From the NCBI GenBank assembly GCA_963751665.1, contig CAVVVF010000009.1, forward strand, positions 107,344-171,343: a DNA stretch of 64,000 bases. The letters are read 5' to 3'. Positions 53,080 to 55,682 of the stretch are shown piece by piece (position 1 is the first letter of the stretch; the number at the start of each line of letters is the position of its first letter). The notes under the pieces are model-generated. The model was not told where the DNA came from and made no database searches. It saw only the letters and a program-made list of their open reading frames with translations. Source of the DNA: an uncultured Actinomycetes bacterium (GTDB lineage: Bacteria; Actinomycetota; UBA4738; HRBIN12). The translations under genes were made by a program, and so were the position numbers.

Positions 53080-53586
53080 CTGGTTCCTGGAAAGCCCCCG
53101 CCTCTTCTGCCCAGACGAGCCAGGCGCCTCGATTTCTTGCGATTTCCCCTCCTCCACCTCCCTCTGTCCTCCCTCCGGCCTCGCCGTTTCCTGCCCGATC
53201 TCTCCCCCAGGAGACCCAAGACCAGCGGCTATGGACTAGAAGGAAGAGGGGTCCAGGACTCGCTGAAGCCGGCCGGGGGGAGACGTGGCGCCGTTGCACC
53301 CTCGCGCGCCTCGGGTGCGGACATATACGCTCGCCTCCCGCTCGATCCTGGCGACCACCAAGTCTTGTCCTGGGACCGGACTGTCAACCACGTCCTGGTA
53401 CCAGACAACGACCTCAGGCTCTGCACTGCCGAATTTGGCTCTACAGGATCAAGGGCGCCGGCTCACGCCGGCGCCAGCGGCCGGCTTACCCTCCGCTCCG
53501 AGCCTCCGGCCCTCCGACGGCGGCCGCCGACCGCGGCGGCGACGTCGGCTGGACGCTGGGCGCCTCACCGCGCAGCGAGCGCCTGC

Positions 53587-53617
53587 CAGACCCCCGTTAC
53601 GACGTAACGGGGGTCTG
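53587..53617 (-). terminator. Perfect 14-bp hairpin just downstream of the oxidoreductase fragment
   Basis: CAGACCCCCGTTAC gac GTAACGGGGGTCTG. No U-tract. Confidence 0.35.
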
Positions 53618-53631
53618 CTGTCTGCGGGTCG

Positions 53632-53936
53632 TTATGGACGAACGCTGATGATCGTCTTCCCCTTGTGTCGCTCGGTCGGGTTGAGGGCCGCAACGGCATC
53701 GTCGAGGGTCGCGACGTTGCCGATGTTCGTCCGCAGCCGTCCGTCACGCACCCGCCGGACGATCTCACTCAGTTGGACGCGATCGGACTCGACAACAAAG
53801 TCGATCGCCAGGCCGTCCGCGGGCCGCGCCTCGGGCGGCCCGACAACGGTCACCAGCGTTCCTCCGGCTCGAACCAGACCCGCGGACCGCTTCTGGATGT
53901 CGCCACCGATGACATCGAAAACCAGATCGACTCCGC
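53632..53936 (-). pseudogene. 3' fragment of an MDR-family (quinone-oxidoreductase-like) NAD(P)-dependent oxidoreductase
   Basis: ..GVDLVFDVIGGDIQKRSAGLVRAGGTLVTVVGPP..IDFVVESDRVQLSEIVRRVRDGRLRTNIG..GKTIISVRP. The N-terminal ~200 aa (GroES-like domain and GxGxxG) are absent. Confidence 0.6.
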
Positions 53937-53972
53937 GCTCCAGGGTATGCGGTCTTGAAGAACTTCTTCGCC

Positions 53973-55682
53973 TCAGTATCGACTTGTTGCCGGAGTTGGG
54001 CACGTAGGCGCCCATGAGGAACACGTAATCGACGGTTCCCCTGGCACTGTGGACCTTGCCGATCTGGATCTCGATTTCCTTCGCGACCTGGGCTGCCTGG
54101 CCGGCGGCAACCCGCTCAGGACCTCATCGCCCCCCACGATTTGACCGGTGGTTCTAGGCCCTTTCACGTCACTACGTAACACGACCAGAACCCCCTTCTG
54201 CTTCTTATCGTATCGGCTGCCGCTCAGCTCGAAGTGCGTATCCAGACCATAGTTCTTGATGAGTCGCCACATGACTTCATGCACGGCCATGTCCGGCTTA
54301 CCCTTCAACACGCCCTTGGCTCGTTCTTTGAGTGCCTCATCTTCCTTAGCCATAGCGGCCAGTTCGTCGGGATACCGTTCACTCCGCTGCACCAGGCCAG
54401 CTCCAGATGGGATGGCACCCATTGTTAGCAACCCTGCAACGACTCCATCCGACCCCGCCTGCTGCACCACGTGCGTCAGCTCGTGTGCCAGCAGCCGTCG
54501 GCCTTCACGATTGTTCGGGGCATACTGACCCGCATCGAAAACCACATCTCGCCCTACCGTGTACGCCACGGCGTTCACCGCCCGGGCCGACTGGGCTGCA
54601 CGTGCGTCAGCGTGGACGCGTACCTGGCCGAAATCGTGGCCGAAGCGCGGCTCCATGAAAGCTCGTATGTCCGTAGCGAGCGGTTGACCCGGGGATTGCA
54701 GGACCTCATGGACTACAGGCGGCGCCGCGTCTACGGTCGCTGCGCTCGACGCCTGGCGTTGAAGCACCTGGTTCATCTTCTTCTTCTTCTGATCGCCCGG
54801 CAGCTTAAGCTTGTACTCATCGCCCAGCAGCGCAGGCAGCTTGTAGCCGAAGGACGGCGTGGGTGGGGTCAGTTGCGGCCCGTCCTGCGGCTTCTTCACG
54901 CCCAGCCACGGATATTTCTTCACCATCGCATCCAGATCCGGACCAGGCGCATACTTCGCCAGAGCGCCCTTCGCGGCCGCGTCCTCAGCCTTCTGCTGCA
55001 AGTCCTCCGGCGAGCCGGGCGGATACTTCATTCCCGCCCGGAATTTAGCCTGATCGGCCGCCATGCGGGCGTTTTCGGCCCGCTGAATTTCCGCTCGGGT
55101 CAGGGCCGGTTTCTTTTCGCCGCCTCCCCCCGGTGCCTGCTCCGAGTATTTGAACGTGATCATCGCTTCGGTCGGCTTGTCCACCGGGCCCTTGTAGGTG
55201 ATTTCGACGCTCAGGCCCGGCGTCAGCACGTCCAGCGGGATCTCCGGGATCTGCGCAGGCAACTCCTTGTGCGTGGCGGCCAACGTCGCCACCGCGCCGG
55301 CCGCGGCCGCACCAGTGATGATCTTGCCGGGCAGCGTGCCGATGAAGCTCTTGCCGGCCTCGGTTGCGCCTTTCACCAGCTTGTCCTGCTTGACCTTTTC
55401 CTGCCAAGTCTTTGCCCAACGGGGTTTCCAGAAACGCCTCCTGAGCTTGTCGGCGGCTTCCTTTATACTTCTCCTCGTCCGTCTTTTCCTTGGGCACGTC
55501 CTCGCGCTGAACGCGCGTGATCGGGCACGGCCGAGAGCGTGAACGGGAGCCGGGCCTCGGCCGTTCATCACCGCGTCGGCTACACGGTCAGCCTCCCGCT
55601 CGAAGCGGTCGCCGGGCAGGTTGACGACGAGCGGGCGGCGCTGGATGAGGCTGTGAGGTGTATGTCTGGAGCGGCTGGTCAC
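53973..55682 (-). CDS. DUF4157-domain protein (HExxH metallopeptidase-like), candidate eCIS cargo; several frame changes, true 3' end unclear
   Basis: ..LIQRRPLVVNLPGDRFEREADRVADAVM.., a Lys-rich linker, ..PLATDIRAFMEPRFGHDFGQVRVHADARAAQSARAVNAVAYTVGRDVVFDAGQYAP..GRRLLAHELTHVVQQ, then an unassigned C-terminal module. Confidence 0.8.
   Translation of the reverse strand: MTSRSRHTPHSLIQRRPLVVNLPGDRFEREADRVADAVMNGRGPAPVHALGRARSRAFSARTCPRKRRTRRSIKEAADKLRRRFWKPRWAKTWQEKVKQDKLVKGATEAGKSFIGTLPGKIITGAAAAGAVATLAATHKELPAQIPEIPLDVLTPGLSVEITYKGPVDKPTEAMITFKYSEQAPGGGGEKKPALTRAEIQRAENARMAADQAKFRAGMKYPPGSPEDLQQKAEDAAAKGALAKYAPGPDLDAMVKKYPWLGVKKPQDGPQLTPPTPSFGYKLPALLGDEYKLKLPGDQKKKKMNQVLQRQASSAATVDAAPPVVHEVLQSPGQPLATDIRAFMEPRFGHDFGQVRVHADARAAQSARAVNAVAYTVGRDVVFDAGQYAPNNREGRRLLAHELTHVVQQAGSDGVVAGLLTMGAIPSGAGLVQRSERYPDELAAMAKEDEALKERAKGVLKGKPDMAVHEVMWRLIKNYGLDTHFELSGSRYDKKQKGVLVVLRSDVKGPRTTGQIVGGDEVLSGLPPARQPRSRRKSRSRSARSTVPGEPSITCSSWAPTCPTPATSRY

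Follow-up and report, generated by a model that had tools for sequence, protein, structure and literature searches.

A Seamless Mid-Gene Junction between an MDR Oxidoreductase Fragment and a Partial eCIS Operon, Probably an Assembly Chimera

The window analyzed here, a 64,000-nucleotide stretch of an Actinomycetota MAG contig, contains a hard breakpoint at position 53936, at which the gene for a DUF4157 eCIS effector and the gene for an MDR oxidoreductase are both cut mid-ORF and joined out of frame. The junction is present in the deposited sequence and is likely an inter-organism chimera from a soil metagenome, either made during assembly or carried by a chimeric long read that was built into the contig; we infer that the join is a product of sequencing or assembly and did not arise in a cell. 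A sequence-only reading of the same DNA had left deletion, rearrangement, and assembly chimera side by side as explanations of a single breakpoint, of which the breakpoint itself stands and the chimera is now the best supported of the three. The last 14.6 kb of the contig, including the whole eCIS cluster, is probably foreign to the actinobacterial genome, which makes this mainly a data-quality result: claims of a truncated or decaying eCIS, a "stretched" effector, or a scar at the operon end need read support before they are rested on this sequence.

Under the chimera reading, the contig would be authentic Actinomycetota chromosome as far as the middle of the MDR cassette, comprising core genes, an R-bounded cassette array, a spacer, a hairpin, and the MDR 3′ end. 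The remaining 14.6 kb would be other DNA of the same soil metagenome, namely the 5′ third of an eCIS operon together with Chloroflexota-like sugar and ilvE genes. The effector and oxidoreductase genes would have been cut at arbitrary internal positions and abutted out of frame, and nothing biological would be expected to work there.

Position and Structure of the Junction

The breakpoint was placed from blastn end-points and a four-way alignment (A1), which agree that homology to an eCIS-bearing relative (L005) stops, and homology to intact MDR genes starts, at 53936. The two sides overlap by 1 nt, a G common to both, with 0 inserted bases, and the cut lies inside two ORFs, outside any repeat or att module. 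The junction is thus seamless, with no repeat at the breakpoint and no adapter-like sequence found, the adapter test being confined to an AT-rich island at 63.1–63.3 kb. That island (63125–63320) was considered as a possible leftover of a nanopore adapter at a second chimeric joint and was rejected, since local alignment to adapter sequences scored no better than shuffles.

Both parental arrangements occur unjoined in other assemblies, as an intact MDR locus (L019, L038, and L039) and as an intact eCIS (L005/L037). The junction 25-mer had no match in JGI metagenome contigs or GTDB species genomes, a weak negative given that exact matching was required, and an exact look-up of the ORFs spanning or flanking the junction in a collection of 15 billion proteins returned this contig only. 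From the junction, 14.6 kb remain to the contig end (window position 68523), and no return to Actinomycetota DNA is seen within them.

The Left Partner: MDR Fragment, Hairpin, Spacer, and R4

The oxidoreductase is represented by a minus-strand 3′ fragment (53632–53936; Pfam ADH_zinc_N_2, 1.3e-10) that holds codons 206–305 and the stop codon of an MDR/NADPH:quinone-reductase-like gene. Its translation is 100% identical to residues 206–305 of an intact 305-residue homologue (P0021), and its nucleotide identity is 99% to L006 and 94% to L007 and L018. The 305-residue form is very widespread in soil Actinomycetota. The identification as an MDR C-terminal fragment that lacks some 200 N-terminal residues, and hence the loss of the 5′ part of the gene, is upheld by these comparisons, except that the 205 missing codons leave the last third of the gene and not, as first described, half. 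Compared with the MDR NADPH:quinone reductases (ADH_N plus ADH_zinc_N), the last 100 residues and the downstream hairpin are kept, but there is no GroES-like catalytic domain and little of the Rossmann domain, the GxGxxG region being lost, so that what remains is only part of a gene. A search of the whole 2.6-Mb assembly did not recover the N-terminal 205 codons; the idea of a displaced target-gene 3′ end, with the MDR 5′ part lying across an inserted element, was rejected for that reason.

Downstream of the MDR stop codon, a hairpin at 53587–53617 on the minus strand has a 14-bp stem and a 3-nt loop, and folding gives −34.7 kcal/mol (z = −3.9). It has no T-run and so no U-tract, and a consensus terminator scan makes no call there; the same hairpin is kept downstream of intact MDR genes in L007, L018, L019, L020, and L021. 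Between the hairpin and the R4 repeat module lies a 0.5-kb noncoding spacer (53080–53586, no strand assigned) with no match in Pfam, Rfam, or the relative genomes, and R4 itself, a boundary of the cassette or attachment-site array, spans 52992–53079 on the plus strand as one of four genomic copies, none of them outside this locus. In these respects, the hairpin, the ORF-poor stretch of about 500 nt, and the position of R4 at its edge, the sequence-only reading was correct.

Its interpretation of the spacer as the scar of an event is not borne out by other contigs. The block 52,992–53,936 is 98.2–98.4% identical over 946 nt in three independent metagenome contigs (L019, L038, and L039), two of which carry the complete 305-residue MDR gene, while the third ends inside the gene, beyond the breakpoint position. 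Position 52992 is the exact end of homology to all three and the left limit of the shared block. Against L019, R4 shows 0 differences and the collinear spacer 9 substitutions plus 4 small indels; from 53462 onward, part of the spacer is common to L020 and L021 as well. Because spacer, hairpin, and R4 are conserved beside an MDR gene in independent contigs, the spacer is native sequence. In L038, a further R-like module and unrelated genes come after the intact MDR gene, and the 7.8 kb upstream of that gene contain no eCIS; comparison with related genomes, which had been proposed as a check, thus finds population contigs with an intact MDR gene and no eCIS at the locus.

The locus stacks foreign cassettes between its R modules, among them a divergent second LeuRS, and related contigs have a tyrosine integrase beside the cassette array. 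An RNA gene (tRNA, tmRNA, or other) in the spacer plus R4 was rejected after ARAGORN and Rfam came back empty in the window and in L019, and a tRNA-like GGAATCGAACC beside R in L019 was not confirmed.

The Right Partner: A Partial eCIS Operon

The DUF4157 (eCIS_core) effector gene occupies 53936–55694 on the minus strand and retains its 5′ ∼535 codons, cut after ..KKFFKTAYPGA. The PF13699 domain is found at residues 338–414 (9.2e-34) and an HELTH (HExxH) motif is present. Homologues of 513–695 residues extend ∼310 residues past ..YPGA, which corresponds to position 386 of 695 in P0006; homology in the window ends at ..YPGA, and a full C-terminal cargo or toxin domain is accordingly missing. 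Upstream of the effector gene, also on the minus strand (55744–63058), lie genes for sheath, tube, two unknown proteins, a DUF4255 cap, a WHD-AAA ATPase, and a small ORF, collinear with L005 at 78–86% blastn identity. Sheath, tube, cap, ATPase, and DUF4157 protein were all recovered with Pfam and by tblastn with L005 proteins, many of them frame-broken, and a frame-tracking HMM likewise finds many frame breaks over the segment.

These components, among them a DUF4157/HExxH protein extended far beyond that domain at its C-terminal side, are those of Afp/PVC-like eCIS (Geller et al. 2021, PMC8213781), and the gene order here equals that of the complete relative L005/L037. In the latter, the effector runs on for its ∼310 further codons, and next come CIS_tube, Phage_base_V, gp25, Baseplate_J, DUF6519, and others; the additional eCIS genes number at least 13 in the L005-type relative. 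Unlike a complete eCIS, the segment in the window lacks the second tube-like (tube-initiator) protein, the spike (Phage_base_V/VgrG-like, PAAR-like), gp25, Baseplate_J, and tail-fiber/DUF6519-type genes as well as the end of the effector, and a tblastn search of the entire 2.6-Mb assembly (MAG 83% complete) with the L005 proteins encoded downstream of the effector gave no match. The proposed loss of the 3′ part of the operon thus stands, and the eCIS as assembled is predicted to be unable to build a particle.

Of the 40 order-level relatives searched, 39 lack the eCIS cap, and the sole match (G023) is only 42% identical. The tube protein is 81–90% identical in some Actinomycetota, so that the eCIS part is unassignable to another phylum; as a taxonomic marker this protein was rejected as too conserved, its 90% cluster including a Longimicrobium protein.

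Reading Frames across the Junction

The effector ORF had been described as continuing, after one frame change near 54,120, without a stop into the oxidoreductase. A stop-free frame does exist, as the minus-strand stop-to-stop frame 53632–54123 (163 residues) reads ..VAAGQAAQVAKEIEIQIGKVHSARGTVDYVFLMGAYVPNSGNKS..ERGVDLVFDVIGGD...GKTIISVRP, but two frame changes are involved instead of one. The effector carries 1-nt changes at ∼54081–54117 and ∼53977–53983, tblastn over it returns three HSPs in three frames, and its last codons (..EAKKFFKTAYPGA) lie in the third frame, out of frame with the MDR fragment, from which it follows that the uninterrupted read-through is a composite. The true effector frame (..KKFFKTAYPGA) would end at 53765 after 57 unrelated codons. 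Both changes are most likely single-base errors in the consensus, which pervade this MAG.

Taxonomic and Compositional Switch

Beyond the eCIS, the right flank (63482–64000 in the window, minus strand) continues past the window to the contig end, and Pfam identifies genes for a class II aldolase/ribulose-5-P 4-epimerase, an ilvE-like protein, a transaldolase, LacI, and DUF4432. These 5 kb are collinear at 87–91% with L040 and L041 and have no DNA match in 11 genus relatives. The named homologues of the aldolase at 79–89% identity belong to Chloroflexi/Anaerolineae, and the protein reaches at most 62% identity in 400 Actinomycetota genomes; on these protein comparisons, the affinity of the flank is Chloroflexota-like. 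On the left, a core gene 13 kb from the junction has its relatives, at 77–93% amino acid identity, in Actinomycetota MAGs only, and the core region is 84–88% identical at the nucleotide level to genus relatives. The taxonomic affinity hence switches from Actinomycetota in the left core to Chloroflexota-like in the right flank.

Composition changes as well. The tetranucleotide distance to the genome, in 5-kb sliding windows, rises from the 35th–91st percentile left of the junction to the 96th–99th percentile right of it and stays raised to the contig end, 14.6 kb away. By this measure, the eCIS segment and the right flank are closer to each other and to the flank in L037 than to the genome of this MAG. 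The shift that had been suggested as a check is thus found, at or beyond the junction, together with the taxonomic one. Composition is atypical at 7 of the 20 contig ends in the MAG, however, so that composition alone cannot separate an island from a chimera.

Per 10 kb, the right side has 12.3 frameshift-like events and the left side 3.7 (3.3×), against a genome mean of 5.9, with the right-side value only at about the 90th percentile of the genome and patchy error density present in core genes too. Frameshift density as proof of eCIS pseudogenization was rejected, given that MAG-wide rate and percentile. The denser errors on the right would be in keeping with thinner coverage of that template in a MAG built from noisy long reads.

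Comparison with Known Kinds of Junction

The usual proof of a misjoin is clipped reads together with a coverage step. The junction resembles long-read (nanopore, Flye-type) metagenome misjoins in being an abrupt, unrelated mid-gene join near a contig end, in the switch of taxonomic affinity and k-mer composition that accompanies it, and in its setting in a MAG with frameshifts throughout. Unlike a typical misjoin, it is seamless, without a repeat or adapter at the breakpoint. There is also a likeness to remnants at integration hot spots (tandem att-site islands), as the MDR fragment ends a cassette array bounded by direct repeats of ∼80–90 nt; unlike such remnants, the breakpoint falls inside two ORFs instead of at a repeat or att module, and the partner DNA has the signature of another phylum.

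Alternative Explanations

That the junction is real we regard as unlikely. On this reading, illegitimate recombination of the Ku/LigD end-joining type, or else a single large deletion, connected the MDR cassette in this strain to a horizontally acquired segment with an eCIS operon and neighboring genes. Such an event would have removed the 5′ two-thirds of the MDR gene, the next R module and its neighbors, the 3′ end of the effector gene, and all baseplate genes, and the eCIS left at this hot spot for cassettes would be a nonfunctional remnant. A seamless junction with 1-nt microhomology is what end joining yields, and contigs of this MAG often end in compositionally atypical DNA, as expected if assembly breaks at strain-variable islands. 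The distribution of eCIS loci is patchy, and they are known to move horizontally (PMC8213781). Against a real event, the acquired piece must include 5 kb of ordinary Chloroflexota-like chromosome with conserved gene order at 87–91% nucleotide identity, and the contig ends without a return to Actinomycetota DNA. Neither truncated gene shows decay, the MDR fragment still being 100% identical in amino acid sequence to intact genes; the three population contigs have the MDR gene intact past the breakpoint and the junction in none; and error density is higher on the right. A simple deletion between neighboring genes was rejected, because the 7.8 kb upstream of the MDR gene in L038 lack an eCIS and no MDR gene is present in the ∼6 kb of L037 sequence past the end of the eCIS.

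In its more specific form, blunt end joining into an R-array cassette would have captured a chromosomal fragment of at least 14.6 kb from another phylum, with the first third of an eCIS operon on it, which we hold to be rather improbable. If true, it would mean that chromosomal DNA crossed between phyla very recently and was caught at a hot spot for cassettes before decay. Two observations on the host weigh against a chimera: the accumulation of foreign cassettes at this hot spot makes a real acquisition of foreign DNA plausible, and the genome encodes Ku, so that blunt end joining in vivo is possible. Long-read assemblers, moreover, normally need several reads for a join, which also counts against a chimera.

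A variant of the chimera reading would put two joins in the contig, or a join elsewhere, with the eCIS belonging to Actinomycetota and only the flank beyond ∼63.1–63.5 kb foreign, or with three sources altogether. The match to the eCIS relative stops at 63081 and that to L040/L041 at 63485, with nothing shared between these points, the aldolase gene of L040 has no adjoining eCIS, and some Actinomycetota have the similar tube proteins noted above. The variant is nevertheless very improbable: eCIS and right flank are as similar in composition as two parts of a single genome would be, and both lie far from this one, intergenic DNA is expected to be unalignable where coding identity is ∼85–90%, so that the homology gap need not be a breakpoint, and the mid-gene cut at 53936 would be left unexplained.

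The weakest reading, a functional hybrid in which the MDR C-terminal (nucleotide-binding) module serves as new cargo on the N-terminus of the DUF4157 effector, can draw on the stop-free frame 53632–54123 that covers both parts and on a weak Pfam ADH_zinc_N match that extends within that frame back to residue 11, but it is extremely doubtful, as the frame is a composite produced by the 1-nt shift at ∼53980, the true effector frame differs from that of MDR and would stop within the fragment, the MDR remnant has 100 residues without GxGxxG region or catalytic domain, the fusion was not found by exact look-up in the 15-billion-protein collection, and the upstream "MDR-like" stretch is conserved effector sequence. 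That stretch had also raised the possibility that the MDR fragment begins upstream, at ∼54120 (Pfam ADH_zinc_N, and BLASTP over AAGQAAQVAKE), which was rejected on its conservation in full-length DUF4157 effectors; the resemblance of AAGQAAQVAKE to the MDR Rossmann motif appears to be coincidental.

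Reading Frames and Breakpoint

The metagenome-assembled genome (MAG) carrying this locus comprises 2.6 Mb in 10 contigs (69% GC, 83% complete), the window being positions 107,344-171,343 of contig C9. On the minus strand, 14.6 kb short of the C9 end, the 5′ part of a DUF4157 effector gene from an extracellular contractile injection system (eCIS) meets a 3′ fragment of an MDR oxidoreductase gene. The hard junction described in the sequence-only reading is upheld, and the breakpoint is exact at window position 53936. A stop-free frame (53632-54123) indeed reads from effector-like residues into oxidoreductase sequence (..GVDLVFDVIGGD...GKTIISVRP) and contains ADH_zinc_N_2 (Pfam, 1.3e-10), while eCIS_core/DUF4157 (Pfam, 9.2e-34) lies in a 573-codon frame upstream. 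Because tblastn of the closest effector homologue, P0002, against the genome splits into three HSPs in three frames (residues 1-142, 155-187, and 190-203), the effector contains two 1-nt frame changes: one at ~54081-54117, matching the single change proposed near 54,120, and a second at ~53977-53983. The last HSP stops at C9:161279 (window 53936). The open frame exists as described, but the last effector codons are out of the MDR frame. Although AAGQAAQVAKE looks like an MDR Rossmann motif, the likeness is coincidental: full-length DUF4157 effectors conserve this stretch.

The MDR fragment is identical (100%) to residues 206-305 of the 305-residue protein P0021. The proposed loss of ~200 N-terminal residues thus stands as a truncation lacking the first 205 codons, with the remaining "C-terminal half" corrected to residues 206-305; the missing codons were not found anywhere in the genome. 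DNA homology to intact MDR genes stops at 53936 (L006, 99%; L007 and L018, 94%; L020 and L021, 93.8%), and a four-way alignment at the breakpoint shows one G common to both sides and zero inserted bases.

Intact Relatives of Both Partners

The final 109 in-frame residues of the effector, used as query in a region-restricted search, retrieved DUF4157 homologues of 513-695 aa (53-91% identity), in which the sequence ...GGDEVLQRVAAGQAAQVAKEIE.QIGKVD.ARGTVDYVF.MGADAPKS.NKFYTEAKKFFK..YPGA.M.EDVRDLEGINQ... is followed by ~310 further residues. P0002 is encoded on an 80-kb ENA/NCBI metagenome contig, L005, lengthened by L037. Window 53936-63081 is collinear with L005:10609-1014 (78-86% nucleotide identity; 94% across the last 300 nt), where genes for a BTAD regulator, sheath, tube, two unknown proteins, cap, WHD-AAA, and small ORFs precede DUF4157. 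In L005/L037 these are followed by CIS_tube, unknown genes, Phage_base_V, a 105-aa protein, gp25, a Baseplate_J protein, baseplate-like genes, and DUF6519. L005 sequence downstream of 10609 has zero nucleotide or protein matches in the whole assembly, in line with the earlier proposal that the operon is cut short.

On the oxidoreductase side, the 0.5 kb left of the hairpin (53090-53590) is gene-free as noted, with Pfam, Rfam, and relative-genome searches all empty. Its interpretation as a deletion scar fails: window 52992-53936, comprising the direct repeat R4 (52992-53079), this spacer, the hairpin, and the MDR part, matches JGI contig L019 at 98.2% over 946 nt and two GenBank metagenome contigs, retrieved with a 30-mer taken from the spacer, at 98.4% (L038) and 98.2% (L039). 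Differences from L019 amount to 2 substitutions in the MDR part, none in R4, and 9 substitutions and 4 small indels in the spacer. Since all three contigs match from R4 to the MDR part, this segment is a native cassette of the population, with 53936 as the sole breakpoint. L038 carries the MDR gene whole, as a 305-codon ORF (2496-3413) that leads to another R-like module (3717-3760) with unrelated genes beyond it. Next to the first R lies a tyrosine integrase (Arm-DNA-bind_4, Phage_int_SAM), and L019 carries an integrase N-terminus of the same kind. Related loci supply an intact MDR gene (L038) and a fuller eCIS (L005/L037), but the joined arrangement was seen in none of them.

Origin of the Junction

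Among deletion, rearrangement, and chimera, which had been offered together, an inter-organism chimera at a noisy long-read contig end is the best reading and the probable one. It is favored because both genes are cut midway and out of frame without decay, because both partners occur natively unjoined in other assemblies, and because the join has no independent occurrence, the contig end is close, and taxonomic affinity, composition, and error density change across it. By exact matching, a junction 25-mer (containing one N) was absent from JGI metagenome contigs and GTDB species genomes, and the called gene products from either junction side were found on this contig only, so that neither test gives the join independent support.

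Taxonomically, window 36-41 kb shares 84-88% nucleotide identity with 11 of 11 genus relatives, and one gene there has 77-93% amino acid relatives exclusively in Actinomycetota MAGs; accessory DNA starts at the repeat R1 (44.1 kb). Genus relatives have MDR paralogues at only 41% identity, and 305-aa MDR proteins at 90-100% numbered in the thousands in a length-adjusted search. Beyond the eCIS, 5 kb encoding aldolase II, ilvE-like, transaldolase, LacI, and DUF4432 proteins have zero DNA matches in the genus and are 87-91% collinear with contigs L040, whose aldolase gene has no neighboring eCIS, and L041, which ends 109 nt past its aldolase gene. Apart from one Nitrososphaerales case, the named homologues of this aldolase at 79-89% identity belong to Chloroflexi or Anaerolineae MAGs; the best match among 400 evenly drawn Actinomycetota genomes is 62%. 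A flank gene of L037 reaches only 57% in Actinomycetota. Of 40 relatives searched at genus, family, and order level, 39 lack a homologue of the eCIS cap, and the single match is 42% identical. A few Actinomycetota have the tube protein at 81-90% identity, and a Longimicrobium protein falls in its 90% cluster; given this spread, the eCIS part cannot be placed taxonomically from its sequence.

The anticipated tetranucleotide shift is present: in 5-kb windows, distance to the genome mean moves from the 35th-91st percentile on the left to the 96th-99th, where it stays until the contig ends. The eCIS and right flank differ by 0.023, the level of two pieces of one genome, are both distant from the MAG (0.037-0.039), and are each similar to the L037 flank outside the eCIS. 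This shift carries a caveat, since similar outliers (at least the 98th percentile) occur at 7 of the MAG's 20 contig ends. A GC-by-codon-position frame-tracking HMM run on all contigs counted ~1,520 frameshift-like same-strand frame changes (5.9 per 10 kb), with 3.7 per 10 kb in the window portion to the left and 12.3 to the right of the junction, the latter ~90th percentile among 15-kb windows. As frameshifts pervade the whole genome, they are genome-wide noise, and the effector's two frame changes are no evidence of decay.

A real event in a cassette hot spot, either end-joining capture or deletion, is an unlikely alternative: Ku is present in the genome, foreign cassettes are stacked at the locus, and eCIS loci are mobile (PMC8213781). 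A functional effector-MDR fusion protein is ruled out by the reading frames.

Neighboring Features

The hairpin (53587-53617) was confirmed (-34.7 kcal/mol, z = -3.9); a U-tract was not found. The genome has four such direct repeats, R4 among them, and all lie at this locus; these modules (44143-53079) bound cassettes of one to few genes. In the same-population contigs (L038:1858-3760, L019, L039), the MDR gene and spacer form a cassette flanked by two R-like modules. The 305-aa oxidoreductase is at least 90% identical in >8,000 90%-identity clusters (proteins P0019-P0138; named members include Trebonia and Dactylosporangium). Nucleotide identity of its gene is 94-99% across contigs with unrelated flanks, which gives it the look of a highly mobile cassette among soil Actinomycetota. 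In P0019 a full copy is preceded in tandem by a C-terminal fragment, and P0022 has an internal duplication.

Full-length members of the effector family (~690 aa) come from soil metagenomes, Dyella, and Variovorax; their ~450-aa C-terminal domain has no Pfam or PDB sequence match. The effector C-terminal module (53936-54450; L037:1-300) has 59-60% GC, below its surroundings, and exceeds the structural genes in nucleotide identity to the relative (94% vs 78-86%). Homology to the eCIS relative stops at 63081 and that to the Chloroflexota-like contigs at 63485; the intervening 400 nt, including a 32% GC island, match neither of these and are not nanopore adapter; they may represent either a promoter region that has diverged or a second join. 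Frameshift-like changes are unevenly spread, the densest blocks being C10:5-35 kb and C1:810-835 kb.

A frameshifted LeuRS gene between R2 and R3 (49198-51412) is a divergent second copy, 65-67% identical in nucleotides to the LeuRS of genus relatives. Within the same genome, C1:~699.5 kb gives another match (64%), presumably the housekeeping LeuRS, and the copy carried by the mobile cassette may be a paralogue of the resistance or immunity type.
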